A DNA stretch of 64,000 bases from Candidatus Levyibacteriota bacterium (GCA_016199085.1 JACQHJ010000003.1:103517-167516); one strand, 5' to 3'; counted from the stretch's first letter, positions 10,613 through 46,346 are shown. Numbers and translations: made by a program. Notes: generated by a model from the letters alone, not told the origin.

Positions 10613-10879
10613 TTAAATACCCCCGGTGAAGATAAAAAATATTATTGAAAAACCAAGAAGACCAATTAGAAGATATTCGACAATAATTTTATTTGTCAGC
10701 TCGTGATTAAGTTTGTGATGTAAAATTCCCCAGAAAACATACGAGGCAATTGTTAAAACTATTATCAGTATCTGTAAATTTGTGTTGGGAGATGCAAAAA
10801 CCGTAGCCAGTAAGCCAATACTAAAAATTATCAAAAGCAGTAAATAGTAATTAAGATGTTTTAAAAATTTCTTTATCAT
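10613..10879 (-). CDS. Small 3-TM membrane protein of unknown function (possibly a DUF2304-like GT2 companion)
   Basis: 88 aa and almost entirely hydrophobic. Sits immediately upstream of the two GT2 genes. Confidence 0.4.
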   Translation of the reverse strand: MIKKFLKHLNYYLLLLIIFSIGLLATVFASPNTNLQILIIVLTIASYVFWGILHHKLNHELTNKIIVEYLLIGLLGFSIIFFIFTGGI

Positions 10880-10880
10880 T

Positions 10881-21593: not shown

Positions 21594-22466
21594 TTATAAA
21601 CTAACTGGTCCCAAAGGTACCTTATTTTCCGGATCGTCTACGAAAAAGTACAAAACAGGACCTTTTCCTCTTCCGTCTACTCTTTCTAAATACCTCATTA
21701 CTTCGGGAGACCCTCCCAGTTGCTTACCCGTCCAGGCAGCGGGACCTGAATCACCGATTACGGCAACGACTGCTTTACCGTTTTGGGGATTAACAACCAG
21801 CATTTTCCTGTATTTATAAAAATCCATATATTCTTTTGTCTTTTCGTTAAATCCGGGAGAAAGAAAAGTCTGTACCGCAATGTAATATTTTTCTCTTAAA
21901 TTATCCTCCCCAGTCATCTCTGACCTTGAATTGGCAAAATACCTGAATGCTCCAAGACCCGGAGCCATGCCATAGCTACCAAATTCCAAAGCTTCCTGTG
22001 GGGTATCAAAGTGCATAAACATATTGTCACCCGGAAATCTAGCCAAATGCTGCTCCTGACCAATATAGCCATATTGGGAATTTAGTCTTTTACCTGAAAG
22101 CTGTGCAATCGCATTGATACCAAACGTTCTTGCAAATACCTCAGAGACTTTACTTTCCTCATCCGTCGTTAACGGTCTTACGTCAGGAGGCAAGACGCTT
22201 TTTAGATCGTAGACTAAAAAAACTCGCTTATCCACAGGCTGGGGATTTGTCACCTCTGCCGAAAAAGAAGCTGGAATCTGCGGGATTATGGGAGATGTTA
22301 ATAAGAAAAGCCCGGTAATTGAGCCAACGGCTAATTGCTTTGAATTATTCTCCAGCCAATCAAAAGCTTCTTTGTGTTTATCAAATATTTCCTTTTGAAG
22401 ATTACTATGCTTTTGACCCCACTTTTGCAAAAGCTTTTGATAATGAATACTTTTACCCTGAAGCAT
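21594..22466 (-). CDS. Membrane-anchored protein with a C-terminal RlpA-like double-psi beta-barrel (DPBB) domain
   Basis: LVVNPQNGKAVVAVIGDSGPAAWTGKQLGGSPEVMRYL resembles the RlpA DPBB core (...TNLENGRSVVVRVNDRGPF...IDLSRAAA). Confidence 0.5.
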   Translation of the reverse strand: MLQGKSIHYQKLLQKWGQKHSNLQKEIFDKHKEAFDWLENNSKQLAVGSITGLFLLTSPIIPQIPASFSAEVTNPQPVDKRVFLVYDLKSVLPPDVRPLTTDEESKVSEVFARTFGINAIAQLSGKRLNSQYGYIGQEQHLARFPGDNMFMHFDTPQEALEFGSYGMAPGLGAFRYFANSRSEMTGEDNLREKYYIAVQTFLSPGFNEKTKEYMDFYKYRKMLVVNPQNGKAVVAVIGDSGPAAWTGKQLGGSPEVMRYLERVDGRGKGPVLYFFVDDPENKVPLGPVSL

Positions 22467-24235: not shown

Positions 24236-24242
24236 TGAATAT

Positions 24243-25328
24243 TTAGGCAAATTCGGACAGTATCTTAATAAGAGTTTTAACTTGCAAAAGAGTATGTGCG
24301 GGAAAATTTCCAATCCTTACTTGTTTTTGTTTATTTTCACCATATCCGCTTCCTAAAATTATTCCTCTTTTTCTGCAAAAGGAAATTAAATCAAGTGAAT
24401 TTCCCTTGATCTTTGCTACAATTGTTGTCTTGGAACGAAGGCTCTTTTCGTTCACCAATGGAGATAAAATCTTACTTTTATCTAAAAAGCCATAAAGAAT
24501 ATCTGCTTTTTTAATTGTTTCTTTTCTTAATCTTTGTATCCCATATTTTCCCATATCTTTTAATACCCCATTTAAAAGAAATATCGCCAACACATTGGGT
24601 GTCTCTGGAGTTTCAGATTTTAAACTATATGAATAAAGAGTTGGGAGGTTGTGATATGAACCGATATCTTTTCCCAAATCCAAAAGTTTTTGGGATTTTT
24701 TTAGTGCTTTATCGCTTATTACGAGCACTCCAAGGCCTGCAGGTAATCCAAAACCTTTCTGAACTGAGAAAAATACATTATCAAGATATTTATATTCTAA
24801 GTCCCCAAAAGGAACTCCTGATACAAAGTCTACGGCAATGAGTAAGTTTTTATTTTTTCTTTTAAGATCATAAATTTTATCCATTGGAAAAACTATTCCG
24901 CTACTGGTATCGTTTTGGGTAACACATAAAAGCTCTATTTTGGAAAGATCAATTTCTTTTAATTTGTCTTCATCCAGCCCTTTTCCAAATTCTGCGGAAA
25001 TTTTGACTGGTTTTTTCCCCAAGTCTTTTGCTATATTAAAAAACTTTTCTCCAAAAGCTCCCGTTATAAGATGCAAGCTATTTTCCAAAACCAGATTATT
25101 AATACTTATTTCCATTCCTTCAGTTCCTGAAGAGATGAAAAATACATGAAAGTCTTGAGGGATATTCAAAAGTTTCTTAAGTAAAGCTACATTTTCCAAA
25201 AACAGTTGGTGAAAGAAATCACCCCTGTGGGAAATAGATAACACATCCTCATTAACTGCCTTTAATAAATGTTTTTGTACGCTTTTATAGTTTTGCGAAG
25301 GCCCTACCGTAAAAAAAACTTTTTTCAT
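24243..25328 (-). CDS. serC: Phosphoserine aminotransferase
   Basis: FTVGPS...SISHRGDFF...FHVFF and the PLP-lysine region QKGFGLPAGLGVLVI align to E. coli SerC. Confidence 0.8.
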   Translation of the reverse strand: MKKVFFTVGPSQNYKSVQKHLLKAVNEDVLSISHRGDFFHQLFLENVALLKKLLNIPQDFHVFFISSGTEGMEISINNLVLENSLHLITGAFGEKFFNIAKDLGKKPVKISAEFGKGLDEDKLKEIDLSKIELLCVTQNDTSSGIVFPMDKIYDLKRKNKNLLIAVDFVSGVPFGDLEYKYLDNVFFSVQKGFGLPAGLGVLVISDKALKKSQKLLDLGKDIGSYHNLPTLYSYSLKSETPETPNVLAIFLLNGVLKDMGKYGIQRLRKETIKKADILYGFLDKSKILSPLVNEKSLRSKTTIVAKIKGNSLDLISFCRKRGIILGSGYGENKQKQVRIGNFPAHTLLQVKTLIKILSEFA

Positions 25329-25329
25329 G

Positions 25330-27222
25330 TTAATAAAGTAATCTAAATTTTATTGTTTCTTCAATATTTTTAAGCTTAGTTTGTAAGTCATTTGAATATT
25401 CTTTGTTGATATCGGTAATTACACACCCAATTATATCATTTGTGCCTAAGATTTGGTTTTCAATATTTGCACCCGTTTCGGAAAGAGCTGTATTTATCTT
25501 TGCCAAAACCCCAGGAACATTTTTATGTATATGTATGAGTCTGTGAATTTTTTGCATTTGAGAAAGATTAAGGTTTGGAAAATTAACCGACAAAGTAGTA
25601 TTTCCAAGATCGATAAAATCTATCAGTTTTTTACCAACAAACTCTCCGATATCTTCTTGTGCTTCCTCCGTGCTTCCTCCGATGTGAGGAGTAAGAATAA
25701 CATTGGGTAAATTTCTAAGAAGGGAGTTAAATTTTTCACCATTGCCGTTTGGCTCATTGGGAAAAACATCCACGGCAGCACCCTTAATTTTTCCATTAAC
25801 AATATATTTATGCAAAGCTTGAATATCTACTATAAATCCCCTGCTCAAATTTAAGAATATCACTCCGTCCTTCATTTGCTTAAATTCTTTTTCACCAATT
25901 AAGTTTTGATTTGATTTTCTCCCATCTACATGTATCGCTATAACATCACTTATTTGTAAAAGCTCCAAAAGAGTCTGACATTTTCTTACGTTTCCAACTG
26001 CCAATTTCTCAACTATGTCATAAAAATAAACTTCCATACCTAAAGCTTGGGCGATAATTCCAAGTTGTGTACCTATATTTCCGTAGCCGACTATTCCCAA
26101 ACGTTTTCCCCTTACTTCATGACTTCCCTTTGCCGACTTATCCCAAACTCCACTATGTAACTTGTTACTTTTTTCAATTACGTTTCTAAAAAGAACTATT
26201 ATTTCCGCAATCGTAAGCTCGACTACGCTTTTGGTATTACTGTAAGGCGCATTAAAAACAACTATCCCTTTTTTCGTACATTCCAAAAGATCAATCTTAT
26301 CAGTACCTATACAAAACGCGCCTATGGCAATTAGTTTCGGGGCATTTTCTAAGACTTTTTTTGAAACAGCGGTCTTTGATCTGACACCAAGTATTGAAAC
26401 ATCTTTAATTTTTTCTATCAATGTTTTTTCATCCAAAGCATTTTCCAATAACTCGACAGTATATCCCTGGTCTTTAAATTTCTTAACTGCAGATTTATCT
26501 ATATTTTCAGTTAATAAAACCTTCATCTTGCTTTTTGGATAAGACAGAGCCCTTGGAAGACCGAGGGAAAACAAAAATTCATCAAAACTGTTAACTGTTA
26601 AATCAGCTTTTTTAACTACGTTTTCTCTTGTTACATTTTCGCAAAAGGCAACAAATTTTACTTTTTTATCTAATTTCTTTATCTCAAAATCCGTATATCC
26701 GTCTCCTAAAACAAATACATTTCCTTCTAAATGCAATGATTTTACGGCTCTTGCCTTACCGTTTTCTTGAGATAAAATATTTTTCTTATCAAATCCCAAT
26801 ACCTTATTGTTTTTTATAATGAAACTATTAGAAAGAATATGGTTTTCCAAAACACCAAACCTTTTTACAACAGGGTAAATATATTCTTTAAATCCTCCTG
26901 AAATAATATAAATACTATTTCTATTTTCCTTAAAAAACTCCTTGTTTCTTTCAATGGAAGGTGTAATTTTTGCTTTAAGATGTTTTATTAGTTTTTCTAT
27001 ATCTTTTTTTTCTATTTTTAGAAGAGACAATCTTTTTGATAAAGACTTTGAAAACTTTATTTTCCCTTCCATACCTAAGGCGGTAGTTTTCTTAATTTCC
27101 GAAGTAATTCTGTCTTTATTTAAATTACCCTTAAGAACAATCTCTGAGAGTTCGTCGATTGCCTCAGTTTGAATAAAAGTGCTGTCAAAATCAATTATGT
27201 AATAGTTTTTCATTTTTACCAT
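25330..27222 (-). CDS. serA: Fusion protein: N-terminal HAD phosphoserine phosphatase (SerB-like) + D-3-phosphoglycerate dehydrogenase (SerA) + C-terminal ACT domain
   Basis: N-terminal IIDFDSTF (DxDxT) HAD motif. The central 2-hydroxyacid dehydrogenase has GIVGYGNIGTQ and GAFCIGTDKIDL. The C-terminus ends in an ACT-like segment. Confidence 0.75.
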   Translation of the reverse strand: MVKMKNYYIIDFDSTFIQTEAIDELSEIVLKGNLNKDRITSEIKKTTALGMEGKIKFSKSLSKRLSLLKIEKKDIEKLIKHLKAKITPSIERNKEFFKENRNSIYIISGGFKEYIYPVVKRFGVLENHILSNSFIIKNNKVLGFDKKNILSQENGKARAVKSLHLEGNVFVLGDGYTDFEIKKLDKKVKFVAFCENVTRENVVKKADLTVNSFDEFLFSLGLPRALSYPKSKMKVLLTENIDKSAVKKFKDQGYTVELLENALDEKTLIEKIKDVSILGVRSKTAVSKKVLENAPKLIAIGAFCIGTDKIDLLECTKKGIVVFNAPYSNTKSVVELTIAEIIVLFRNVIEKSNKLHSGVWDKSAKGSHEVRGKRLGIVGYGNIGTQLGIIAQALGMEVYFYDIVEKLAVGNVRKCQTLLELLQISDVIAIHVDGRKSNQNLIGEKEFKQMKDGVIFLNLSRGFIVDIQALHKYIVNGKIKGAAVDVFPNEPNGNGEKFNSLLRNLPNVILTPHIGGSTEEAQEDIGEFVGKKLIDFIDLGNTTLSVNFPNLNLSQMQKIHRLIHIHKNVPGVLAKINTALSETGANIENQILGTNDIIGCVITDINKEYSNDLQTKLKNIEETIKFRLLY

Positions 27223-32426: not shown

Positions 32427-33953
32427 CTAGACGTCGCTAAATCTTTTTTTGACAAATTCTTTATCCAAGGAAAGTATTAACCAGGCCGCTTTTGGACCAT
32501 AATCTTTTCCAAGTAAAGATAAATAGATTGCCGCAAAAGTTTCTTTGCCGTTTAATCCCAAACTTTTCCCAATATCATAAATTTTTATTTGAAAATCCTC
32601 GGGACTCCGTTTATTATCGATCTCATTTGCAATTTGACGCAGAGCTTTTCTTTGATTATCCGATAGCTCTTTTGCTTTTTGAGGTATGTTTTTTTGTACA
32701 GTGAATTTTTCGTTTTCTGGTGCATATTTTTCTATCCAGTTTCTGGCATAAGTTGCCCAATCTTCCAAATTATTTTTTTTAATTTCAGGCTCCATATTTG
32801 GCATCTGGACCCACTGGGCCAAAACGGAAAATCTAACTGAGGGCGGATGTTTAATTTGATCACCAATTTGGGAAAGTTCAAAAATTCGGGCTATGTCGCT
32901 TCCATCTTTTTTAAAGTATGCATCAGCGGCTTTTTGATAGTCGTCAAACAGATTGGCAATTGTGTTTGGCTCCGAAGGATCAAAGTTAATTTGCGTATTT
33001 ACTTTAATTCTAACTATCAGAAACCTAATTAGCTCGGGGGGCAATATCTCAAGCATGTCTGACGCAGCAATTCCCACCCCTCTTGAAGAAGACATTTTCC
33101 TTCCACCTATCAATATCCACTCATAGGGAATTGGGAAAGGAACTGGATAATTAAGAACTCTTTTTGCTACTTCACTTGCCAGGTCATGCGAGCCGCCTTT
33201 TGACATATGGTCTTTTCCGGCTCCTTCAATAGTTACTCCAATCGCTTTCCATTTTACCGGCCACTCAACTTTCCATGGCATTTTTCCGACAATCTTGCCA
33301 TCACCGCTAAAAGGCGAGGCTTTACCTTTTTCACCGCAACCTTTTGTCCATTTAACTTTATCGACAACACATTCAAAGGTTACAAGCTTTCCATCCCAGT
33401 CTATAACCTGGGTTGTTGAAACTTTGCCGCAATTTGGACAATATAGTTGGAATGGATACCAATCATCCGGCAGTTTTTTGTCATACATTTCCTCATATAT
33501 TTTCCTGACTTTACTGGCATTATCCAAAACATCTTTAATCATCGGATTCATAAGTCCATTTGTGTATAAATCTTTGGTCCAGATAATTTCCGGTGTACTT
33601 CCGATTGCGTTAAATACTTTTTGGAAATCAGCGGCATAATACCTTGCATAATTTTCATATCCCTCAACAGGAGATGGGATTTTAAAAAGAGGCATACCCA
33701 AAAAAGGCTCAAATTTCTCTCTGTCTAAATATGAAGGGACATCATCCATTGGATCGTGATCTTCAAACACATAGGTATATTTTGCTTTTTCCCCTCTACT
33801 AAGAAGGGCTTTATAGATAAGATCATGAATTACTACTCCTCTTAAAGCACCAACATGAACCCTGCCTGAGGGAGTTTTCATGTCATCCACCCAGTATGGC
33901 TTATATTTTCCTGATTTAACAATTTGTTCTACTATTTGATCAACCCAAAACAT
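32427..33953 (-). CDS. lysS: Class I (archaeal-type) lysyl-tRNA synthetase
   Basis: HIGH-like GRVHVGALRG and KMSKS-like GRKMSSSRG. 508 aa with no class II motifs. Confidence 0.85.
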   Translation of the reverse strand: MFWVDQIVEQIVKSGKYKPYWVDDMKTPSGRVHVGALRGVVIHDLIYKALLSRGEKAKYTYVFEDHDPMDDVPSYLDREKFEPFLGMPLFKIPSPVEGYENYARYYAADFQKVFNAIGSTPEIIWTKDLYTNGLMNPMIKDVLDNASKVRKIYEEMYDKKLPDDWYPFQLYCPNCGKVSTTQVIDWDGKLVTFECVVDKVKWTKGCGEKGKASPFSGDGKIVGKMPWKVEWPVKWKAIGVTIEGAGKDHMSKGGSHDLASEVAKRVLNYPVPFPIPYEWILIGGRKMSSSRGVGIAASDMLEILPPELIRFLIVRIKVNTQINFDPSEPNTIANLFDDYQKAADAYFKKDGSDIARIFELSQIGDQIKHPPSVRFSVLAQWVQMPNMEPEIKKNNLEDWATYARNWIEKYAPENEKFTVQKNIPQKAKELSDNQRKALRQIANEIDNKRSPEDFQIKIYDIGKSLGLNGKETFAAIYLSLLGKDYGPKAAWLILSLDKEFVKKRFSDV

Positions 33954-33990: not shown

Positions 33991-35037
33991 CTAAATAAGC
34001 TTTTTAGCCTTTAGAAGCTCCGCGTTTAGTATAGCTGCTCCTGCTGCGCCACGTATAGTATTGTGGACCAAGAGAGTAAATTTAATATCAAAGATAGCCG
34101 ATTGCCTAATTCTCCCAACGCTTACAGACATACCGTTATTTATATCTCTGTCTAGAACCGGCTGAGGCCTGTCCTCTTCCGTTCTGACAATAATAGGATC
34201 AGCCGGAGCAGAGGGAAGATTAAGTTTTTGCGGAAGACCTTTGAAGCTTTTGAATGCTTTCACAACGTCTTCAATTGCCGGTTTTTTAATAAGCTCAACT
34301 GTTACCGATTCCAGATGTCCGTCTCTGACTGCGACCCTGTTGCAGTGAGCACTGATTATCATTTTTGCATTGTTTATTTTTCCGCTTCCAACGCTTCCTA
34401 AAAGCTTAAGCGGTTCTGTTTCTACTTTTTCTTCTTCATCTCCAATATATGGAACAACATTATCAACTGCATCAAGGGAGGCAACTCCCGGATATCCTGC
34501 GCCTGATAATGCCTGCATAGAAACAACAGAAACTCTACTTATCCCAAATGCGTCCTGCAAGGGCTTTAAGGCAAGGGTTAAGCCGATAGTCGTACAATTT
34601 GGGTTTGTGACAATAAAACCTTTGCCTTTAAATCTAGTTTTTTGGATATTTATTAAATCCAGATGCTCTGGATTTACTTCTGGGATTAAAAGTGGAACAT
34701 CGCTGTCCATTCTATGGTTTTTGGAATTACTGATAACTATGTATCCTTTTTTGGCAAATTCTTCCTCGATTGGGCCTGCCACTGATGAATCAAGAGCCGA
34801 AAACACAACCCGAGCATTAAAATCAGGAACACATAGCCTAACTTTTAATTTAGCAATGTCTTTTGGAATCCTTGGGGAGACTTTCCAGTTGACAATCTCC
34901 TCGTATCTTTTGCCAAGGCTTTTCTCTGAAGCACAAACAAACTTTACCTCAAACCACGGATGACCTTCCAGAAGTTGTACAAACCTCTGGCCGACGTTTC
35001 CGGTTGCTCCCAAAATTCCTACAGGTATTTTTCTCAT
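33991..35037 (-). CDS. asd: Aspartate-semialdehyde dehydrogenase
   Basis: GILGATGNVGQRF and the active-site Cys in SAHCNRV. Confidence 0.9.
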   Translation of the reverse strand: MRKIPVGILGATGNVGQRFVQLLEGHPWFEVKFVCASEKSLGKRYEEIVNWKVSPRIPKDIAKLKVRLCVPDFNARVVFSALDSSVAGPIEEEFAKKGYIVISNSKNHRMDSDVPLLIPEVNPEHLDLINIQKTRFKGKGFIVTNPNCTTIGLTLALKPLQDAFGISRVSVVSMQALSGAGYPGVASLDAVDNVVPYIGDEEEKVETEPLKLLGSVGSGKINNAKMIISAHCNRVAVRDGHLESVTVELIKKPAIEDVVKAFKSFKGLPQKLNLPSAPADPIIVRTEEDRPQPVLDRDINNGMSVSVGRIRQSAIFDIKFTLLVHNTIRGAAGAAILNAELLKAKKLI

Positions 35038-35918
35038 ATTAATTCCATCCTTTTTAAAATATCTTTTAGAACTAATTTATTTTTCTCTTCCATAGGAACC
35101 AAAGGCAATCTGAAAACTTCCTCAATTTTTCCCATTAAAGACAGTGCTGTTTTGACAGGAAGTGGATTTGTCTCAATGAAATTTGCATTCATCAGTTCCA
35201 TTAATTTGTAATGAAGGACTTTTGCTTTTGCAAAATCTCCGTTTAATCCATATTGAATCAATTTTGCAAAATCTCTTGGAACCTCATTTGAAACAACGGA
35301 TATGCATCCGTGTCCACCGACACTAAGCAAGGGAAGCGTAAAAAGATCGTCTCCTGATAAAACACTAAAGTTGGATGGTGCTTTTTTAACTATCTCCATC
35401 ATTTGTCCCAAATTTCCTGAAGCTTCTTTTACTCCAATAATGTGATCAACTGCATTTGCAATTTTTAATGTCATATCCGAAGTTAAGTTAAGACCAGTAC
35501 GACCCGGGACATTATATACAACAATTGGCAAATCAACTGCTTTTGCGATTGCTTTATAGTGAGCGATAAGTCCGTTGATTGTTGGTTTATTGTAATAAGG
35601 CGTTACGTGTAAAAGCGCATTTGCTCCCGCCTGTTTTGCCAAAAGAGAAAAATGAACCGCTTTTAACGTATCGTTACTTCCTGCACCTGCGATTACCGGC
35701 ACTCTGCCCCTTACCTCTTCAACCACGGTTTTGACAACCAATTGGTATTCTTCGCTGTTCATAGTTGCCGCTTCACCTGTTGATCCACAAGGAACCAGAC
35801 CGTTAATACCTTCGCTCAACTGGAATTTAACCAATTTTCTAAGTGCTTCAACATCAATTGACCCATCCCTTTTAAAAGGAGTTGCCAAAGCTGTTATGGC
35901 ACCGGTTAGTTTTTTCAT
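35034..35918 (-). CDS. dapA: 4-hydroxy-tetrahydrodipicolinate synthase
   Basis: ALATPF...GLVPCGSTGEAATM and Schiff-base lysine in IGVKEASG. Confidence 0.9.
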   Translation of the reverse strand: MKKLTGAITALATPFKRDGSIDVEALRKLVKFQLSEGINGLVPCGSTGEAATMNSEEYQLVVKTVVEEVRGRVPVIAGAGSNDTLKAVHFSLLAKQAGANALLHVTPYYNKPTINGLIAHYKAIAKAVDLPIVVYNVPGRTGLNLTSDMTLKIANAVDHIIGVKEASGNLGQMMEIVKKAPSNFSVLSGDDLFTLPLLSVGGHGCISVVSNEVPRDFAKLIQYGLNGDFAKAKVLHYKLMELMNANFIETNPLPVKTALSLMGKIEEVFRLPLVPMEEKNKLVLKDILKRMELI

Positions 35919-36658
35919 TTGTTACTCACCCCCAAAGTTTTAATAAAAATATCATTAAAGTTATAAAAACCTTTTTTTGACAAAATAAAGTTTGCTGCCA
36001 AAAGTGCTCCTTTTGCAAAACCTTTCCTGTTCCAAGCCTGATGAGTCAGTCTTATCTCATCGGAGGGGCTGTCAAAAACAATTTCATGCTGTCCGAAATT
36101 TCTTCCGCCTCTGACTGATGCAAAGTGTAGCTCATTTTTCCCTATCAATCCCTGTACTCTTTCTATCTGCAGTTTTGTTTTAGAAGGAAAGTTTTTCATA
36201 ATTATTTCCGCAAGTTTTCTTGCTGTACCGCTTGGACTGTCTTTTTTTCCGCTGTGATGCGTTTCAATGCCAAAGACGTCATAATCATATTTTGTCAAAA
36301 GCAGACAAGCATGGGAAACTATCGAGAAAAAAATGTTTGCACCGACTGAGAAGTTCTGCCCATAAATTAAACTGCCGTTATGTTGTTGAACAATTTTTTG
36401 CACTTTTTTGACATTGTCGTACCAACCAGTTGTTCCAACGACCATCGGTTTTTTTAGTCGCATTACTTGTCTTATATTATCAACAACAATCTCAAAAGAA
36501 CTAAAATCAATTACAACATCAGCATTTCTTATTCCTTCCAGATCAAGTTTTTCATTTCTGCTTTTGAAACTTATGGAAACAACTAAGTGGCCGTTCTCTT
36601 TTACAAGAGACTCTATTTCCTGTCCCATATTTCCGTATCCTATTAAGGCAATTTTCAC
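35915..36658 (-). CDS. dapB: 4-hydroxy-tetrahydrodipicolinate reductase
   Basis: MKIALIGYGNMGQ and the DapB core. ATGA overlaps on both sides. Confidence 0.85.
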   Translation of the reverse strand: MKIALIGYGNMGQEIESLVKENGHLVVSISFKSRNEKLDLEGIRNADVVIDFSSFEIVVDNIRQVMRLKKPMVVGTTGWYDNVKKVQKIVQQHNGSLIYGQNFSVGANIFFSIVSHACLLLTKYDYDVFGIETHHSGKKDSPSGTARKLAEIIMKNFPSKTKLQIERVQGLIGKNELHFASVRGGRNFGQHEIVFDSPSDEIRLTHQAWNRKGFAKGALLAANFILSKKGFYNFNDIFIKTLGVSNK

Positions 36659-37989
36659 AGTGCTTCTCCTTTACCGATCAGTGCTTTATGCAATAAGCTA
36701 ACACTTTGATCAACGTGAATTGAAGGCAAAACCAAGCTGATGTTAATATCCGACGCTCCAAGGGATATCATTCTGACACTAATATCTGATCTATCGAGAA
36801 TTGAAAATATTTGTTTAAGAATATTTTTAACATCAACAATTTTTTCTCCAATTAAAGAAACCATACCCAGTTCTTTGGTTGTTGAAATTGTTGAAAATTC
36901 TTTTAGCTCTTTTATTGCCTGTTCTAAATTTTCATTGTTATCCAAGGAAGCTGAAATACTTACTTCCGAAACGCTGACAAGGTCGATTGAAATATTATAT
37001 TTTGAAAAAATTGAAAAAACTTTTGCCAAAAATCCTTTATTTAATAACATATCTGTTGAGTAAATTGTAACCAAGGTAATTTTTCTTTTGGAAGCAATTG
37101 CAACAATGTGGCTTTTATCTAAATTGGTATTTTTGATAACTGTGCCTTTTGCTTTTGGATTAAAAGTATTTAAAACCCTGACTGGAATTCCACTAGATAC
37201 AGCAGGACGAATAGTTCTTGGATGAAGAACTCTTGCTCCAAATGCAGCAAGCTCAGAAGCTTCTTTATATGAAACGACTTTTAAAACTTTTGCTTGTTTG
37301 ATAAGTTTTGGATCTGATGTGAAAATTCCATCTACGTCTGTCCAAATCTGGATTTCATCTGCGTGAAGACTAAATCCAAGTATGGCAGCTGTATAATCAG
37401 ATCCTCCTCTTCCAAGAGTCGTCGTTTTATTCTGTTTTGTACTACCAATAAAACCAGTAACGACTGGGATAATTCCTTTTTTAATAAGAGGTGTCAGTGT
37501 ATTTTTTGTTTTTTGCTCTGTTTCTCTTGGCAAAAACTCTGCAGAACCAAAATGATCATTGGTTACAATTAAGGAAGTTGCAATTATTTGTTTTGCATTG
37601 ACTTTTGCATCGTTTAACATATGAGTGATTATTTTTGAAGAAATTATCTCCCCATATGAGATAATTTCATCTAAAATTTGAGATGTATTTTTTTTACTAA
37701 GAAGTTCATCAACAGATTCCAAGGACTCTAAAAGGTAATCTTTTAAATCGTTTGGTACGCTTTCATAATAATCCCTTATTAAGTTTAAGTGCAGATTTTC
37801 TATCTGTTTAAAAATAGTATTTTTATTTGCATTTACTTTTGTTAAAGACAAAAGCAGATCTGTTATCCCTGATATTGCCGAAACAACAACAATGGGATTT
37901 TTAGACCTTTGTGTTCTTACAATCTCAACAATTGTTTTTAAACTTTTTTTTGTACTTACGGATGTTCCTCCGAATTTTAGAATAATCAT
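36655..37989 (-). CDS. lysC: Aspartate kinase with tandem C-terminal ACT domains
   Basis: IILKFGGTSV and the Asp kinase core plus ACT repeats. Confidence 0.9.
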   Translation of the reverse strand: MIILKFGGTSVSTKKSLKTIVEIVRTQRSKNPIVVVSAISGITDLLLSLTKVNANKNTIFKQIENLHLNLIRDYYESVPNDLKDYLLESLESVDELLSKKNTSQILDEIISYGEIISSKIITHMLNDAKVNAKQIIATSLIVTNDHFGSAEFLPRETEQKTKNTLTPLIKKGIIPVVTGFIGSTKQNKTTTLGRGGSDYTAAILGFSLHADEIQIWTDVDGIFTSDPKLIKQAKVLKVVSYKEASELAAFGARVLHPRTIRPAVSSGIPVRVLNTFNPKAKGTVIKNTNLDKSHIVAIASKRKITLVTIYSTDMLLNKGFLAKVFSIFSKYNISIDLVSVSEVSISASLDNNENLEQAIKELKEFSTISTTKELGMVSLIGEKIVDVKNILKQIFSILDRSDISVRMISLGASDINISLVLPSIHVDQSVSLLHKALIGKGEAL

Positions 37990-39245
37990 ATCTGCCTCCC
38001 TAGCGTTCTAAAATCTATGGTTTTAAAATAATCATCAACAGTTTCAGCTCTTCGTATTAGTACTGCTTTCCCGTTTGGTTTTAATAGAAGCTCTGCTGAT
38101 CTTAATTTACCGTTGTAGTTAAAACCCATTGCGTGACCGTGTGCACCTGTATCGTGAATTACTAAAATATCTCCTATATCTACTTTCGGAAGTCTTCTGT
38201 CAATTGCGAATTTATCATTGTTTTCACATAAAGATCCTGTTACGTCATAAATCTTTGTTTTATCTTTTTTACTTTTTCCCATAACCGTAATATGATGGTA
38301 AGCGCCATACATGCCGGGCCTCATTAAATTAGCCATGCTTGCATCAAGTCCGACGTAATTTTTGTACGTATCTTTTTTATGCAAAACCGTTGTTACTAAA
38401 TACCCGTAAGGACCTGTTATCATACGGCCGTTTTCCATAAATAGTTTAAGAGGATGCAAATTGTTTTTTACAATTTTTTCTTTATAGATTCTTTCAATTT
38501 TTCTAGACAAAAGGCTTAGATCAACAGGTTTTTGATCTTCTCTGTACGGGATGCCTATCCCTCCGCCGATGTTTATAAATTCAAATGTAATTCCCAAGGT
38601 TTTATTTATTTCCAAAATCAAATCAAAAAGCATGTTTGCTGTATCGACAAAATACTGGGGATTTAATTCATTTGATGCAATCATCGTATGAAGTCCAAAT
38701 CTTTTTACTCCTTTTTGTTTCATAATTTTATAGGCTTTAAATAACTGGTCACGAGTTAATCCGTATTTTGCTTCTTCGGGTTTTCCTATAATTGCATTTC
38801 CTTTTCTAAGTTTTCCCGGGTTATATCTAAAGCAAATAATATCCGGTATTCCTGCATGCTCTTTTAAGAATTCAATGTGGGATATATCATCAAGATTGAT
38901 GATTGCCCCTAAATCTTTTGCTTTTATGTATTCTTTTGCAGCGGCATCGTTTGAGGTAAACATAATGTCTTCGCCTTTAAGCCCTACTTTTTGGGCTAAA
39001 ATAAGTTCAGCATAGGAACTGCAGTCTGCTCCAAAACCCTGTCTTTTCATTATTTCCAGAATATACGGATTGGGGAGTGCTTTAACCGCAAAATATTCCC
39101 TAAAGCCTTTATTCCAAGAAAAGGCTTTGTTTAGTTTTATAGCATTTTCTACAATAGCTTTCTCATCATAAATATGAAAAGGTGTTTCAAAATTTTTGAT
39201 AATTTCTACTATTTGTTTTTTTGTAAATGGCAATGTTTTTCTCAT
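37986..39245 (-). CDS. lysA: Diaminopimelate decarboxylase
   Basis: Fold-III PLP decarboxylase motifs (YAVKALPN, GGGIGIPY, GAHGHAMG). Confidence 0.85.
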   Translation of the reverse strand: MRKTLPFTKKQIVEIIKNFETPFHIYDEKAIVENAIKLNKAFSWNKGFREYFAVKALPNPYILEIMKRQGFGADCSSYAELILAQKVGLKGEDIMFTSNDAAAKEYIKAKDLGAIINLDDISHIEFLKEHAGIPDIICFRYNPGKLRKGNAIIGKPEEAKYGLTRDQLFKAYKIMKQKGVKRFGLHTMIASNELNPQYFVDTANMLFDLILEINKTLGITFEFINIGGGIGIPYREDQKPVDLSLLSRKIERIYKEKIVKNNLHPLKLFMENGRMITGPYGYLVTTVLHKKDTYKNYVGLDASMANLMRPGMYGAYHHITVMGKSKKDKTKIYDVTGSLCENNDKFAIDRRLPKVDIGDILVIHDTGAHGHAMGFNYNGKLRSAELLLKPNGKAVLIRRAETVDDYFKTIDFRTLGRQI

Positions 39246-40465
39246 ATTTTTAAATTCTCTTGAATACTTTTTATTGCTTGTTTTACGTTTTCTCTATGTC
39301 CAAAAGCGGATAATCTAAAATACCCCTCTCCTAAAAGTCCAAATCCCGCACCCGGAGTTCCGACGACACGGGCCTCATTTAATAATTTGTCAAAAAATTC
39401 CCAAGAACTTAAACCATTTGGTGTTTTAAGCCAAATGTAGGGAGCGTTTTTTCCTCCGAAGACTTTTAACCCCATTTTTTCAAGACCGACTCTAATAAGT
39501 CTTGCGTTTTCCATGTAATAATCAATAATTTCCCCAGACTCTCTTTGTCCTTTTTTAGACAGCACTGCAAGACCCCCTTCCTGGGCAATATTTGATGCGC
39601 CGTTAAACATCGTTGTCTGGCGTCTGTTCCACATTGCGTTAAGCTCGCCTTTTTTTGAATTTTGGGTAATAAGATCCATTGGCACAATTGTCCAACCAAG
39701 CCTAACTCCTGTAAAACCAGCCCATTTTGAAAAGCTTGAAATTTCTATGGCACATTTTCTAGCCCCTGGTATTTCGTAAATACTTCTTGGCAAATTTTTA
39801 TCTTTAATGAAAAAACTGTAAGCTGCATCAAAAATAATTATGGCTTTGTGTTTCAAAGCCCAGTTAACAAATCTTTTAAGCTGATCTCTGGTTGCAACCG
39901 CACCCGTCGGATTATTCGGACTGCAGATATAAATTAAATCTACTTTTTTATCTGGCAGTTTAGGAAAAAAACCGTTTTCTTCCAAAGAATCCAGATAAAC
40001 AATGTTTTTATATCTTCCGTTTTTAAACTCTCCACCCCGTCCTTGTATAACATTACTGTCAACGTAGACTGGATAAACAGGATCTGAAACTGCAACTACA
40101 TTATCGTTTCCGAAAATTGAACTGATATTTGCACTGTCTGTTTTTGCTCCATCACTTACAAAAATCTCTAAAGGATCTATTCTCACTCCCATATTTTTAT
40201 ACCAAGTAGAAAGTGCTGCTCTAAGTCTTGTATCACCCTGCTCATCGCCGTAACCCGTATAGGTATCTACATTTGCTAATTTAGATACACCTAAGCCTAA
40301 ACCATCTATTACGCTTTTAGGTAAAGCCTCTGTCGTGTTTCCAATACCAAGCCTTAAGACTTTTGCATCTTTGTTTTTTTCCAAAAACACTTTAGTCCTT
40401 TTTGCAATCTCTGAAAAAAGATATCCTGCCTGCAATGTTTTATAATTTTTATTTATTGTTGCCAT
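39242..40465 (-). CDS. dapL: LL-diaminopimelate aminotransferase
   Basis: N-terminus MATINKNYKTLQAGYLFSEIAKR matches DapL ([23 protein letters not shown]). PLP lysine in SFSKWAGFTGVRLGW. Confidence 0.85.
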   Translation of the reverse strand: MATINKNYKTLQAGYLFSEIAKRTKVFLEKNKDAKVLRLGIGNTTEALPKSVIDGLGLGVSKLANVDTYTGYGDEQGDTRLRAALSTWYKNMGVRIDPLEIFVSDGAKTDSANISSIFGNDNVVAVSDPVYPVYVDSNVIQGRGGEFKNGRYKNIVYLDSLEENGFFPKLPDKKVDLIYICSPNNPTGAVATRDQLKRFVNWALKHKAIIIFDAAYSFFIKDKNLPRSIYEIPGARKCAIEISSFSKWAGFTGVRLGWTIVPMDLITQNSKKGELNAMWNRRQTTMFNGASNIAQEGGLAVLSKKGQRESGEIIDYYMENARLIRVGLEKMGLKVFGGKNAPYIWLKTPNGLSSWEFFDKLLNEARVVGTPGAGFGLLGEGYFRLSAFGHRENVKQAIKSIQENLKI

Positions 40466-40491
40466 ATATTTTAAATATTGTTTTTCCCATT

Positions 40492-40513
40492 AAAAAAACC
40501 CTCTAATGAGGGG
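40492..40513 (-). terminator. Terminator/attenuator-like hairpin (ccctc-atta-gaggg + U7) in the 190-nt leader between kbl and dapL
   Basis: Read from sequence. Lies 30 nt upstream of the dapL ATG. Confidence 0.45.
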
Positions 40514-40654
40514 TGTCTTTCTACTTTGGGTCTAAATTTACGACAAGACAAAACCCCCCACAAAGGAGTCCTTCTTGCACTTATCTTCAAAATTTACAAA
40601 TAAATTTTTCATCTGTTTCGTAATTCTAGCATTAAATTATTTTTTTGTCAAAAC

Positions 40655-42859: not shown

Positions 42860-44656
42860 TTAATCTTTAACCTCAATCGCGGAAACCATATCTTCATCGA
42901 GTCTTAAAAGACCTTCATCGAGTCTTTTCTGATCCAAGAAATGCGCAATGAAACCAACCGATCTTGATATGACAAACAAGGCATTGAAAAATTCCGTATC
43001 AATAAGTTCGCCAAGATCTTTATCCGAATATCCTTCTTTTTCTGAAAGAATATCCAATAATACAGCTGCTATTGCACCATCAACGTTTAATATCAAATTT
43101 GCTTTCTTTCCTGTTGTTACTTTTTCAACTTCTTTTGCAAAACCGGAAAAGCGCTTCTTTGAAAGCTTATGAGAAAAGTTTAAAATCTCAGAAACTCTTG
43201 GATCAGGCATATCCAAGCGGTATTTTTTGTGCCCTATTCCCGAGATATAAATTTTTTGCCTTACAAAATGCTCTACAAAATCGGCCGCATTCCAACCTTC
43301 GGTCACACCTTTTAACCAATTATCTGCAGCCTGGTTGATTGCTCCGCCAAAACGAGAACCAATCGTTAAAAGACCCGATGAAAGTGAAGATACGAGGTCT
43401 CTGCCTGCTCTGGAGGCAACGATAGTATTTAGGGCGCCGCTGACATAAGGACCGTGGTCAACAAGAAGCCTTAGTACAAAATCAACAAAGTCTTCAAGCT
43501 GCCTTGATTTTATTTTCTTGCCTAAAAAAAGCGATGCGACGATTGCGGCAAAGGAATTTTGCTTGGCAAATTTAAGCAAATCTTCATTTAAAATCTTGAC
43601 GTTTCCGTCTTCATCTTTTGAAATTGTCGTTGAGATGAGAGCTTTTTTCCTTTGTTCCATAGACCTTATTCTACTATAATCCGTTGTAGTTTTCACTCTT
43701 TCCAAGGGCGCGTTTGTTATTTGTCTAACAAATTCTGGAAAAGTCTCATAAACAGTTGCTCCTGCATTTTTCAAAGCTTCTTTTTTTGCCCTTGCCGTTT
43801 CGTTTTGATTTTTAGCCATTGCTTTTGCATGACCAAACTGAGGAGGTGTTTCAAAAATCTCCGAGATGCTTCCTGCAATAAAACAAAAAGTAGGTTTTGT
43901 TATTTTCTTTGTTTTAATTAAATCTGCAATCTCGTATTCATCAACTCCGCCAAGCTCTCCGAAATAAACGATTGCTTTAGTTTTACTGTCATTTTGGGCA
44001 GACATAAATGCATCGCTTGGTGTAGTTATTGGAAATCTGTCACCCCCAAAAGAAAGAGAAAAAGAAATATTCTTACCTGAATTTGCAACAATTCTTATTA
44101 ATTCTCCTGTCATTCCGCCTGAGGCGCTAAATACAGCTACGCTTCCGCTACTTAGAAGCGATGAATCAATTAATTGTCTTACGTCTATCCCGCCAATCGG
44201 ACCAAGCTTAAGTACCTCTGGGATAACCAAACCAACGCTTGACGGACCGATTATAAACTTATTTTTGTTCTTAGAAAATTCGTAAAGTTCAAGGGAATGT
44301 TTTTCGGGAACATTTTCCGCAAAGATTACTCCCCCCAAGAGAGAAGGCAACGATTCTAAAATCTCTTTTGTAGATGAAAGAACTCTTCTAGCTGAAGAAA
44401 GGTTAATAAAGAAAGACAAATTCTGTTTTTTTTCATCGGGGAGATCCTTAAATGAAGAAACAACAGGAATCAGTATCTCTTTTTTACCCCAAAAATATCT
44501 TTCGTAATTTCTTCCGCTTGCAATTATTAAGCTTATGCTGGGTTCCTTCTTGCCTACCAAATAATCAAAGTCCAAAATTGACTGAATTATCCCAGGATAA
44601 CTGCCTATCGTTACAATATTTCCTTTAGTCTGTCTAATTTTTTCTATATTAATCAT
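42860..44656 (-). CDS. aclA: ATP-citrate lyase large subunit (CoA-binding/SCS-alpha-like + citrate-synthase-like domains)
   Basis: Tracks the C-terminal two-thirds of human ACLY: QSILDFDY, FWGKKEILIPV, PQFGHAKA (catalytic His), DHGPYVSGALNTIVASRAGRDLVSSLSSGLLTIGSRFGGA, SGIGHKKY, LILNVDGA, GFIAHFLDQKRL. Confidence 0.85.
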   Translation of the reverse strand: MINIEKIRQTKGNIVTIGSYPGIIQSILDFDYLVGKKEPSISLIIASGRNYERYFWGKKEILIPVVSSFKDLPDEKKQNLSFFINLSSARRVLSSTKEILESLPSLLGGVIFAENVPEKHSLELYEFSKNKNKFIIGPSSVGLVIPEVLKLGPIGGIDVRQLIDSSLLSSGSVAVFSASGGMTGELIRIVANSGKNISFSLSFGGDRFPITTPSDAFMSAQNDSKTKAIVYFGELGGVDEYEIADLIKTKKITKPTFCFIAGSISEIFETPPQFGHAKAMAKNQNETARAKKEALKNAGATVYETFPEFVRQITNAPLERVKTTTDYSRIRSMEQRKKALISTTISKDEDGNVKILNEDLLKFAKQNSFAAIVASLFLGKKIKSRQLEDFVDFVLRLLVDHGPYVSGALNTIVASRAGRDLVSSLSSGLLTIGSRFGGAINQAADNWLKGVTEGWNAADFVEHFVRQKIYISGIGHKKYRLDMPDPRVSEILNFSHKLSKKRFSGFAKEVEKVTTGKKANLILNVDGAIAAVLLDILSEKEGYSDKDLGELIDTEFFNALFVISRSVGFIAHFLDQKRLDEGLLRLDEDMVSAIEVKD

Positions 44657-45831
44657 TTTTCTAAGTACTTAAGAGCAATTAAGACAATATCTGTTAAGAC
44701 CATTTTTGGGCCTTCGACTTTTCCAAGCAAATCCTCTTTCCCCAAAAAATTCCTCATCTCCAAAAGTCCTTCTTCCTGATGAGGCCCACCTCTTCTGACA
44801 AAAACCTTAACTTTTTGTTTTACTAAGTTTTTTTTAACTTCATCTAAGGCTTGTATTACGCCTTTGAACGTAATCCTGATATCGGTAAAGTTTGCGACTC
44901 CTCCCCCGATTATTAAAACTTTTTTCATGGCATTTGATTTCAGAAGAAGACTAAGTAAATTCTTGGTATAGATATATGTTTCCTCTTTATTTGGATTTCC
45001 GCTATACTCACCATAGTTTGCAAGCTCTTTTCCGAATCCCTGGTTTGCGACCTCGTCTGCTAAAACAATACTTGCTCCTCCTCCTGATAAAAGCATAAAA
45101 ATACTTCCATTAGGATTTAAAATATCAAGCCTAAATGCAGCCTGACTTTTTTGCGAAAGATTAAGAATACTTTCTTCCTCTTTTGTCTTTGTCCTTGCCT
45201 CTAGGATAAAATCAGATTCGTCAAATGCTCTCTTTACGAAAAACTGGGCTGTGCTATCTACTTCTACTGCAAGATCAAGAATATATATTCTATCTTTGAT
45301 TACAACCAAGGGGTTAATTTCCAAAAATGAAAAGTAATTTTGGTCAAAGAGGGAAAATATTTTTTCCAAAAAGTTTTTGTCAATTTCAAGATACCTTGCA
45401 ATTTCGTCAATATCTTTAACCGTTTTTACGATCTTTTTTTTGATGTTTTCTTTGTGTTTCTCTATATCTATTCCGCCAGCATTTGAATAAAGAAATAGCT
45501 TTCCTTCTCTCACCAAATCAATGGACAAATATTTTTCTTGGTCTTTCTCATGAGCAATATACTCTTCAATAAAAAGGGACGAAAAGCCTAGCTTTGTATA
45601 TGAATCGATGATCTTTTCTACTTCACTAGTTTTTTTATCTATTGCTACAAGTCCTTTTTTAAACCTTCCCTTTACTCCCTGATCAACTTTTATAACGTAT
45701 CTTTTATTTGGATCTAAGATGGGAATCTTATTGTTGGTTTTAGAAGAAATTGAGAAACAATCTGGAGGAAAATTAAGGATATTATAGACAAGCTGCTTAG
45801 CTTTATATTCGCTTATTTTTACTCTTGCCAT
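44653..45831 (-). CDS. aclB: ATP-citrate lyase small subunit (ATP-grasp)
   Basis: Aligns to the ACLY N-terminus: MARVKISEYKAKQLVY, FLEINPLVV.KD.IYILDLAVEVDSTA, SGGGASIV, ELANYGEYSGNP, IIGGGVANFTDI..TFKG, VRRGGPHQEEGL. Confidence 0.85.
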   Translation of the reverse strand: MARVKISEYKAKQLVYNILNFPPDCFSISSKTNNKIPILDPNKRYVIKVDQGVKGRFKKGLVAIDKKTSEVEKIIDSYTKLGFSSLFIEEYIAHEKDQEKYLSIDLVREGKLFLYSNAGGIDIEKHKENIKKKIVKTVKDIDEIARYLEIDKNFLEKIFSLFDQNYFSFLEINPLVVIKDRIYILDLAVEVDSTAQFFVKRAFDESDFILEARTKTKEEESILNLSQKSQAAFRLDILNPNGSIFMLLSGGGASIVLADEVANQGFGKELANYGEYSGNPNKEETYIYTKNLLSLLLKSNAMKKVLIIGGGVANFTDIRITFKGVIQALDEVKKNLVKQKVKVFVRRGGPHQEEGLLEMRNFLGKEDLLGKVEGPKMVLTDIVLIALKYLEK

Positions 45832-45872
45832 ATCTTACAGATTGTATCAAACCTGGCTTTAATTGTGGAGGT

Positions 45873-46346
45873 TTAGTGAACGGCAATTATCGTGTAGGCA
45901 ATTTTTCCCGCTGGCGCTTCAACCTCTACTTTTTCTCCTACTTTTTTACCCATTAAGGCTTTGCCAAGAGGGGATTCATGCGAAATCTTTTTCTCTTTAG
46001 GATCTGCTTCCCATTCTCCAACGACGGTAAACTCTTCTTTCTTTCCCTTAACGGTAACAAAGACCTTGGAGCCAAGCGATACGACGTGGCTTGAGCCATT
46101 GTGATGGTTTTCCTCAATAAGGGTTGCCTGGCTTATCAATTCCTCAAGCTCGCCCAGTCTTCCATCAATAAAAGAAAGCTCTTCTCTTGCAGCAACGTAT
46201 TCAGCGTTCTCAGAAAGATCGCCCATGCTTCGCGCTTGGGAAACTCTTTCTAAAACCAAAGGCCTTTTAGAAGTATTTAATTCTTCGTATTCCTTTTTTA
46301 ACTCTTGTAATCCTTCTTTTGTTAAATAAATTTTCTTACTATCCAT
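45873..46346 (-). CDS. greA: Transcription elongation factor GreA
   Basis: Coiled-coil N-terminal domain plus FKBP-like C-terminal domain (SHESPLGKALMGKKVGE). Confidence 0.9.
   Translation of the reverse strand: MDSKKIYLTKEGLQELKKEYEELNTSKRPLVLERVSQARSMGDLSENAEYVAAREELSFIDGRLGELEELISQATLIEENHHNGSSHVVSLGSKVFVTVKGKKEEFTVVGEWEADPKEKKISHESPLGKALMGKKVGEKVEVEAPAGKIAYTIIAVH

Follow-up and report, generated by a model that had tools for sequence, protein, structure and literature searches.

Two overlapping genes, aclB and aclA, lie on the minus strand of a 64,000-nucleotide stretch of the genome of a Candidatus Levyibacteriota bacterium (GCA_016199085.1, JACQHJ010000003.1:103517-167516; hereafter, the window), and their products can be identified from sequence as the two subunits of an intact ATP-citrate lyase (ACL, EC 2.3.3.8). 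We consider it probable that these proteins form a functional heteromeric ACL belonging to a clade specific to the bacterial Candidate Phyla Radiation (CPR), and that the enzyme cleaves citrate to provide acetyl-CoA and oxaloacetate for biosynthesis rather than for carbon fixation. The identity of the enzyme, the conservation of its residues, the gene order and the conservation across relatives are the observed part of this account. An earlier sequence-only reading of the same DNA had proposed a two-subunit ACL in an AT-rich bacterium with a small genome, directly upstream of co-oriented genes for threonine dehydrogenase (tdh) and 2-amino-3-ketobutyrate CoA ligase (kbl). This proposal is borne out by open reading frames (ORFs) that fill positions 42860-45831 exactly, by the presence of the full set of ACL domains and catalytic residues, by a GC content of 0.32-0.41 across the window and by gaps of only 6 nt between aclA and tdh and 3 nt between tdh and kbl.

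Identity of the two subunits

AclB matches the Pfam models PF24948 (ATP-citrate synthase ATP-grasp; residues 5-201, 109 bits against a cutoff of 83) and PF16114 (Citrate_bind; residues 213-388, 196.7 bits against a cutoff of 26.8), whereas AclA matches PF00549 (Ligase_CoA; residues 177-300) and PF00285 (Citrate_synt; residues 359-585). The Pfam CoA_binding model found no match in AclA, but the same region nonetheless aligns to ACLY with high posterior probability, and residues 17-592 of AclA form one continuous alignment with residues 502-1092 of human ACLY. The similarity to eukaryotic ACLY and to the Chlorobium proteins that had been noticed previously is thus quantified in Table 1. These ACL-level matches far exceed chance, the scores against solved ACLs being three to six times those against citryl-CoA synthetase, citryl-CoA lyase and succinyl-CoA synthetase, and the fold can be regarded as settled by the sequence match to solved ACLs (E=1e-104).

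Table 1. Scores of the two predicted ACL subunits against solved ACLs and their paralogues
Compared protein	Alpha subunit (AclA)	Beta subunit (AclB)
Human ACLY	352 bits (E=4.6e-104)	216 bits (E=5.6e-63)
Methanosaeta (Methanothrix) concilii ACLY	339 bits (ACLY-B, E=4.8e-100)	200 bits (E=6.9e-58)
Chlorobium limicola ACL	212 bits (AclA, E=1.2e-61)	130 bits (E=1.4e-36)
Citryl-CoA synthetase	81.5 bits (small subunit)	52 bits (large subunit)
Succinyl-CoA synthetase	78.5 bits (SCS alpha)	22 bits (SCS beta)
Citryl-CoA lyase	55.7 bits	not applicable
Citrate synthase	43.7 bits

The sequence-only reading had allowed that the two proteins might instead fall among succinyl-CoA synthetase or citrate-synthase-like paralogues that lack the ACL residues. 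Their ACL scores are, however, far above those for succinyl-CoA synthetase, citryl-CoA synthetase, citryl-CoA lyase and citrate synthase, the ACL residues are kept, and a neighbour-joining (NJ) tree, a distance tree that is readable only at the level of clade support, sets the window enzyme inside the ACL diversity. The NCBIfam models of succinyl-CoA synthetase, citryl-CoA lyase and citrate synthase yield partial matches far under their cutoffs (for instance, 103 bits against a cutoff of 336 for the alpha subunit of succinyl-CoA synthetase), as expected for an enzyme that is built from modules of these paralogues. A system consisting of citryl-CoA synthetase and a separate citryl-CoA lyase, such as that of Hydrogenobacter thermophilus (PDB 6HXQ, 6HXP), was ruled out: the H. 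thermophilus proteins comprise homologous modules and perform the same overall cleavage in two steps (81.5, 52 and 55.7 bits; Table 1), but their lyase is a separate protein, whereas in the window the lyase module is fused inside the 598-aa AclA.

Counting of alignment columns shows that E114, H276, H401, H476 and D526 of AclA correspond to E599, H760, H900, H975 and D1026 of human ACLY, H760 being the catalytic phosphohistidine and E599 the glutamate that partners it. Alignment of 27 homologues shows no variation at any of these five positions, and none in the segment Q273-A279 across the 27 CPR homologues. The citryl-CoA lyase residues, which the sequence-only reading had pointed to together with the catalytic histidine loop, lie in the motifs DHGP (H401), GIGH (H476) and LNVDG (D526) and recur in loci L002-L013, except that a text search for DHGP found no match in L003. 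AclB has EYSG, ANFT and VRRGGP in the alignment columns of human G309, N346/T348 and R379, which, from the structure of human ACLY with citrate, we take to be citrate-binding residues. Each residue for catalysis or citrate binding that can be mapped onto human ACLY is kept. The sole deviation among the mapped motifs is in the histidine loop, GHAKA for GHAGA: H276 aligns with human H760, but K278 stands in place of human G762 (human loop FGHAGA).

Human ACLY and the M. concilii ACLY-A/B (PDB 6HXH, 6HXI) are the best-scoring solved relatives of the window enzyme and share with it the domain order and the catalytic and citrate-binding residues, although the identity is only ~35-38% and both carry the GHAGA loop. 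The M. concilii enzyme, like that of the window, consists of two subunits and has no obvious context in the reverse tricarboxylic acid (rTCA) cycle, whereas human ACLY is one fused chain. The rTCA-type enzyme of C. limicola (AclB/AclA, PDB 6HXJ) is likewise made of two subunits encoded by adjacent aclB-aclA and catalyses the same chemistry, but ACLs of this type are much more distant (29% identity between the window AclA and the Chlorobiaceae representative P0191; 212 versus 352 bits for the C. limicola and human proteins) and serve autotrophic CO2 fixation, a role not expected for the window enzyme. Indeed, although ACL classically serves to mark the rTCA cycle (PMC9802188), its participation in a Chlorobium-like autotrophic cycle here is scarcely credible. 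The organism belongs to the CPR, where surveys assign the TCA cycle chiefly to partners that co-occur with these bacteria (PMC11608272), and the partner enzymes of the rTCA cycle were not found in the window, where none of the ~60 genes encodes 2-oxoglutarate synthase (2-oxoglutarate:ferredoxin oxidoreductase), fumarate reductase, aconitase or isocitrate dehydrogenase.

A CPR clade with a GHAKA loop

The window AclA is 100% identical to the NCBI entry 'hypothetical protein HY344_02730 [Candidatus Levybacteria bacterium]', and the source metagenome-assembled genome (MAG), assigned to Candidatus Levybacteria (CPR), has a GC content of ~36%. The best 120 clusters at 90% identity are all 60-80% identical to this protein and ~600 aa long, and those with names come from Levybacteria or the 'Patescibacteria group'. 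A search of one genome per species yielded matches in records under the titles Woesebacteria, Saccharibacteria and Patescibacteria group as well as in three MAGs titled 'uncultured Gammaproteobacteria', and two conserved peptide patterns retrieved 342 relatives from JGI metagenomes. The latter three records, titled 'uncultured Gammaproteobacteria bacterium' (L001, L002 and L008; CAYWPH010000001.1, CAZSWA010000001.1 and CAZUZF010000009.1, respectively) have a GC content of 33-34% and 63-87% protein identity to the window, with which they also share gene order; given this composition and synteny, their labels are probably wrong.

Among the representatives of a 50%-identity library, those nearest to the window protein (45-63% identity; one named Candidatus Dojkabacteria) carry GHAKA, whereas the farther ones (30-41% identity) carry GHAGA or GHAGS loops and include an archaeon of the Norongarragalinales, a second lineage of Saccharibacteria (P0142/P0305), fused eukaryote-type proteins of ~1,000-1,160 aa (e.g., from the fungus Paraphysoderma) and, down at 29% identity, the AclA of Chlorobiaceae. 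In the NJ tree, the GHAKA sequences form, together with one nested GHAGA sequence, a clade recovered in 100/100 bootstraps, whereas its sister group is supported by only 55/100. The window ACL appears to belong to a CPR-specific clade that lies in the archaeal/eukaryote-like part of the family, far nearer to the human and Methanosaeta enzymes than to the Chlorobium type. FGHAKA is present in 90 of 91 loci, most of which were retrieved with a pattern containing this very motif, the genome loci L002-L008 being independent of it. The hundreds of clade members, found in Levy-, Woese-, Dojka- and Saccharibacteria, are 45-80% identical and have intact ORFs; judging from these sequences, the clade appears to be clearly under purifying selection. 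The nested sequence, P0122 (604 aa), represents either a reversion or a place where the tree is imperfect. Another AclA-like protein with GHAGA, P0128 (1003 aa), has an unexplained C-terminal extension of ~400 aa.

The replacement of glycine by lysine two positions after the catalytic histidine (His+2) throughout a clade with full bootstrap support, and its absence from the sampled Chlorobiaceae, fungal or fused eukaryote-type and archaeal-type ACLs, could signify functional divergence, whereby the GHAKA proteins would be ACL homologues that act on another tricarboxylate or hydroxy acid, or with altered phosphotransfer, and not true ATP-citrate lyases. We consider this very unlikely: all positions for citrate binding and citryl-CoA cleavage in the alignment with the human enzyme are conserved, and the residue at His+2 varies elsewhere in the family (GHAWA in P0172, GHAAA in P0151) and reads GHAGA in P0122.

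The sequence-only reading had assumed that ACL occurs mainly in rTCA autotrophs and eukaryotes. This premise is outdated because an ACL has been solved from the archaeon M. concilii, where its context is not autotrophic, ACLA/B and ACLY of eukaryotes are reported to branch with DPANN and Thermoplasmatota archaea (PMC11976288), and the enzyme has been published in CPR (PMC6851277, PMC12577380), to which the hundreds of CPR sequences described here can be added. Sieber et al. (2019; PMC6851277) described a two-subunit ACL with a GHAGA loop in Gracilibacterium, most similar to archaeal proteins and "rarely detected in CPR", and proposed that it probably turns imported citrate into acetyl-CoA and oxaloacetate; the enzyme of the window is likewise a two-subunit CPR protein for which we propose a citrate-cleaving role, but in its clade the loop is GHAKA, and members abound in Microgenomates-type lineages and in Saccharibacteria. 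In a 2025 groundwater study, aclAB was enriched in Saccharimonadia MAGs (PMC12577380), and a 2022 preprint reported that citrate-cleavage homologues of CPR and DPANN are mis-annotated as succinyl-CoA synthetase or citrate synthase. Accordingly, ACL in a CPR genome is not new, and the window enzyme is a typical member of an abundant, little-studied clade, so that calling it unusual is justified only in part. Three features retain a modest interest: the GHAKA loop as a mark of the clade, the repeated occurrence next to tdh-kbl and aspartate/lysine genes, and the widespread mis-annotation. Our literature search found no description of the GHAKA clade, of its abundance in Microgenomates-type lineages or of its gene context, and a text search for 'GHAKA' returned unrelated substrings only. 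Public names of CPR AclA proteins (P0001, P0025, P0112, P0117, P0126 and others) include 'hypothetical protein', 'succinyl-CoA synthetase alpha subunit', 'citrate/2-methylcitrate synthase' and 'ATP citrate (pro-S)-lyase', and some of the 'gltA' (citrate synthase) calls for CPR in surveys such as PMC11608272 may stem from such misnamed proteins.

Gene neighbourhood in the window

The acl genes are part of a long run of minus-strand genes (Table 2): SBP, NTase-like and greA are followed, with gaps in nt given in brackets, by (41) aclB (-4) aclA (6) tdh (3) kbl (189) dapL (-4) lysA (-4) lysC (-4) dapB (-4) dapA (-4) asd (37) lysS, rdgB and serS, the aclB/aclA overlap having the sequence ATGA. With gaps of -4, 6 and 3 nt, aclB-aclA-tdh-kbl is one tight unit.

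Table 2. Features of the acl region (positions in the window)
Feature	Position	Strand	Basis and remarks
greA	45873..46346	minus	Pfam GreA_GreB N- and C-terminal domains; 41 nt 5' of aclB
aclB, predicted ACL beta subunit (ATP-grasp and citrate-binding domains), 392 aa	44653..45831	minus	Pfam; match to the N-terminal part of human ACLY
aclA, predicted ACL alpha subunit of 598 aa (citryl-CoA lyase module joined to CoA-binding/CoA-ligase domains)	42860..44656	minus	Pfam; alignment to human ACLY
Phosphohistidine loop FGHAKA, AclA residues 274-279	43820..43837	minus	Translation; alignment to human ACLY
tdh, L-threonine 3-dehydrogenase, 333 aa	41852..42853	minus	Zn-ADH domains; 6 nt after aclA end
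kbl, 2-amino-3-ketobutyrate CoA ligase (glycine C-acetyltransferase), 397 aa	40655..41848	minus	3 nt after tdh end
kbl-dapL gap, 189 nt: promoter-like site, conserved leader and terminator-like hairpin	40466..40654	minus	Sequence inspection; relatives
dapL-lysA-lysC-dapB-dapA-asd, complete aspartate-to-lysine pathway (LL-DAP aminotransferase route)	33991..40465	minus	NCBIfam; 4-nt overlaps between consecutive genes

An adjacent Zn-dependent dehydrogenase and pyridoxal-phosphate-dependent acetyltransferase most plausibly represent the Tdh-Kbl pair, which connects threonine, glycine and acetyl-CoA. The best NCBIfam matches of both proteins fall just under the curated cutoffs (Tdh, 374.6 bits for TIGR00692 with a cutoff of 458 and 364.5 bits for NF003808 with a cutoff of 380; Kbl, 497 bits for TIGR01825, BioF/Kbl, with a cutoff of 535 and 436.7 bits for NF005394, glycine C-acetyltransferase, with a cutoff of 460), as expected for divergent CPR proteins. 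The sequence-only reading was right about this pair but missed the full aspartate-to-lysine pathway immediately downstream, all six genes of which score above the curated cutoffs: dapL (TIGR03542, 558.9 bits), lysA (TIGR01048, 307.5), aspartokinase (TIGR00657, 387.4), dapB (TIGR00036, 157.9), dapA (TIGR00674, 349) and asd (TIGR00978, 460.3). The lysine operon is translationally coupled and starts from aspartate, the transamination product of oxaloacetate.

The region upstream of aclB (45831-45869, minus) is devoid of a Shine-Dalgarno-like sequence and contains an extended -10-like element, TG-n-TACAAT, ending 10 nt 5' of the ATG. Besides read-through from greA, on whose side another promoter-like site lies at 46453-46425, aclB may have its own promoter and a leaderless or near-leaderless mRNA.

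The kbl-dapL gap contains a near-consensus promoter-like site (TTGACA-17-TAGAAT, 40651-40623) and, 34 nt 5' of the dapL ATG, a CCCTC-loop-GAGGG hairpin with a T-run (40512-40499). A leader of ~110 nt is kept in L008 (12007-12187), L001/L012 (L001, ~10740-10940), L015 (~3010-3210) and, in part, L026 (~13630-13820), and one of its hairpins has changes on both sides between the window and L008. Comparison of the leader with the lysine riboswitch (L-box) and all other Rfam families at E<=1 gave chance-level matches only, and a leader-peptide attenuator with lysine codons was rejected, the small ORF being unconserved and, in L001, reaching a stop after 6 codons. The layout nevertheless resembles that of a riboswitch or attenuator, and the leader is a candidate for a new regulatory RNA of the lysine operon in Levybacteria. 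Downstream of asd, at a distance of 37 nt, the window encodes a class I (archaeal-type) lysyl-tRNA synthetase (32427-33953, minus); this lysS also comes after the acl region in L001, L002, L013 and L029.

Conservation of the neighbourhood in relatives

A recognisable aclB lies directly 5' of aclA in 78 of 87 loci, that is, in all those for which upstream DNA is present, the rest being cut short. The SBP-NTase-greA-aclBA backbone is syntenic in L001, L002, L008, L013, L026, L028, L029 and L035, and the links of acl to tdh-kbl and to lysine genes are limited to the subclade with this backbone. The window and L008 share the order aclBA-tdh-kbl-dapL-lysA-lysC, whereas L013/L014, L028 and L035 have greA-tdh-kbl-aclBA. 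The acetyl-CoA node that the sequence-only reading had proposed for aclBA and tdh-kbl is therefore plausible, the adjacency being found in two gene orders, but it concerns a single subclade (5 of its 10 distinct genomes and none of ~75 other CPR loci). In relatives without tdh-kbl, aclBA still lies beside lysC-dapB-dapA-asd, which we count in favour of a biosynthetic role: in L001/L012 and L015, aclBA is followed by lysC-dapB-dapA; in L012, a NUDIX/GNAT gene intervenes and dapA is followed by asd. In L026, aclBA is followed by murB and then, from a reading of the ORF translations, by an apparent lysine block of the dapD/dapE type. A 'dapL' candidate in L026 was rejected as a 25%-identity match to a different aminotransferase, so that this locus supports the link of acl to lysine genes, with murB between them, but not the dapL route. 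Both the tdh-kbl and the lysine link are absent from L002 and L029.

In L001/L012 and L015, tdh, kbl, dapL and lysA are gone, yet the lysine leader persists 5' of lysC-dapB-dapA-asd together with the opening codons of dapL (ATGGCAACAATAAAT...); this remnant looks like a deletion scar, and the lysine pathway is apparently incomplete at the locus.

When all ORFs within 6 kb of aclBA were clustered across the 87 loci, the commonest neighbours were murB (23 loci, of which 22 have it co-oriented with aclBA, usually within 100-600 nt downstream), followed by a GalE-like epimerase (13), EF-G (11) and glmS (10). One CPR lineage (L048, L064, L066, L070, L072 and L079) combines aclB-aclA with an aspartate aminotransferase (AspAT)-like gene on the opposite strand, an archaeal-type phosphoenolpyruvate (PEP) carboxylase (493 bits), a dcd-like gene, whose assignment as dCTP-deaminase-like is a reading of the sequence rather than the result of a profile scan, and a secreted protein of ~565 aa, so that two oxaloacetate-forming enzymes and a likely aspartate aminotransferase are encoded within ~8 kb. 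Several of the neighbours thus make or use oxaloacetate or aspartate, or join the synthesis of UDP-N-acetylglucosamine (UDP-GlcNAc) and peptidoglycan, which consumes acetyl-CoA. Genes with housekeeping functions, however, turn up beside aclBA just as often, and each pattern is restricted to a lineage.

These distributions bear on whether the neighbourhood has any metabolic meaning at all. That the ACL is real but its placement next to tdh-kbl and the lysine genes is an accident of a conserved chromosomal backbone is a serious possibility, albeit not the one we favour. The links occur only within the subclade defined by SBP-NTase-greA and lysS-rdgB-serS, where the tdh-kbl and dap/lys blocks come and go; between kbl and dapL lies a terminator-like hairpin as well as a promoter-like site; and the housekeeping genes greA, lysS, serS and EF-G are just as near. 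Pure accident sits less well with the observation that tdh-kbl still adjoins aclBA after having moved from downstream to upstream of it, and with the independent pairing of aclBA with PEP carboxylase, the AspAT-like gene, glmS and murB in unrelated CPR lineages.

Proposed role and direction of the reaction

What we infer from these data concerns the direction of flux, the source of citrate and the coupling to neighbouring pathways. In the proposed mechanism, AclB would bind ATP and citrate, and H276 of AclA would be phosphorylated and pass the phosphate on to give citryl-phosphate. Attack by CoA would then yield citryl-CoA, which the C-terminal citrate-synthase-like module (H401, H476, D526) would split into acetyl-CoA and oxaloacetate. 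The citrate would probably be obtained from a host or the surroundings. Oxaloacetate would be converted to aspartate and enter the adjacent lysC-asd-dapA-dapB-dapL-lysA pathway, leading to meso-diaminopimelate (meso-DAP) and lysine for protein and the cell wall, whereas acetyl-CoA would join a pool in common with the presumably co-transcribed Tdh-Kbl (threonine <-> glycine + acetyl-CoA). Because the full aspartate-to-lysine pathway is encoded next door, oxaloacetate, besides acetyl-CoA, is a likely reason for the presence of ACL. The murB, glmS, AspAT-like and PEP carboxylase neighbours elsewhere in CPR also appear to favour the biosynthetic interpretation, the former two pointing to users of UDP-GlcNAc derived from acetyl-CoA and the latter two to the oxaloacetate/aspartate node.

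The main rival to cleavage is reverse operation, whereby ACL would act as an ATP-yielding citrate synthase: Tdh-Kbl would degrade scavenged threonine, and the resulting acetyl-CoA would be condensed with oxaloacetate to give citrate and ATP, for glutamate or energy. This scenario draws on the tight unit, seen in two gene orders, that aclBA forms with tdh-kbl, the usual direction of which is acetyl-CoA-producing, on the fact that no TCA-cycle enzyme, citrate synthase included, was found in the 64-kb window, and on the near-equilibrium nature of the reaction. It would, however, require stoichiometric oxaloacetate, yet the adjacent operon drains the oxaloacetate/aspartate pool; the window lacks aconitase and isocitrate dehydrogenase; and tdh-kbl is not near ACL in most CPR loci. 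We regard reverse operation as unlikely.

The Tdh-Kbl reaction itself may run from threonine to glycine and acetyl-CoA or from glycine and acetyl-CoA to threonine, the latter having been shown to be possible for the Escherichia coli enzymes. A study on Trypanosoma brucei (PMC4034587) describes Tdh and Kbl, acting on scavenged threonine, as a main source of acetyl-CoA. This host-dependent organism offers an analogy for the pairing of tdh-kbl with an acetyl-CoA-forming enzyme, although the route is eukaryotic and mitochondrial and is not linked to ACL.

Several considerations weigh against citrate cleavage for biosynthesis by a true ACL. The ACL reaction is close to equilibrium, and gene content alone therefore leaves its direction unfixed. 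Neither a recognisable citrate transporter nor an aspartate aminotransferase was found within the 64-kb window, and citrate synthase, aconitase and other sources of acetyl-CoA may be encoded in the genome beyond it. The lineage-restricted links to neighbouring genes could reflect shared ancestry rather than selection. Finally, the invariant lysine at His+2 is without precedent among the other ACLs sampled, and our literature search found no biochemical study of any CPR ACL.

Other genes of the window

Other window genes encode nucleotide-sugar enzymes, glycosyltransferases, TsaD/TsaE/Sua5 (t6A tRNA modification), RecA/RecX, SecA, aminoacyl-tRNA synthetases and enzymes of serine biosynthesis. 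Among the last, a 630-aa protein (25330-27222, minus) fuses a HAD phosphoserine-phosphatase-like SerB domain (residues 3-211) to a full SerA phosphoglycerate dehydrogenase (residues 225-630) and is adjoined by a gene for a SerC-like aminotransferase (24243-25328), so that the whole serine pathway is contained in two genes. Four sizeable minus-strand ORFs without a Pfam match at E<=1e-5 (22490-24313, 607 aa; 21594-22466, 290 aa; 14038-15273, 411 aa; 13188-14015, 275 aa) are uncharacterised CPR proteins. Scanned in full against Rfam at gathering thresholds, the window yielded zero matches and so offers no context from rRNA or tRNA genes.

Implications

For most building blocks, CPR bacteria are generally regarded as dependent on hosts, and their sources of acetyl-CoA and C4 acids are poorly defined. 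A broader, rather unlikely version of the account presented here would make the GHAKA clade a widespread CPR-specific ACL lineage through which citrate serves as a major carbon currency of the symbionts, with oxaloacetate feeding aspartate, meso-DAP and lysine, acetyl-CoA feeding N-acetyl sugars as well as threonine and glycine, and the loop lysine being an adaptation of phosphotransfer; if so, both halves of scavenged citrate would end up largely in the cell wall and protein. The misnaming of CPR AclA proteins implies that surveys may score TCA-cycle genes or rTCA markers in organisms doing neither. Placed among the archaeal and eukaryote-like ACLs, the GHAKA clade brings a bacterial group into the debate on the origin of eukaryotic ACLY, with the caveat that the NJ tree gives too little support to any sister group. 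A conserved and abundant ACL would provide a concrete, testable entry point to these sources of acetyl-CoA and C4 acids in CPR bacteria, with citrate going in and acetyl-CoA and oxaloacetate coming out.

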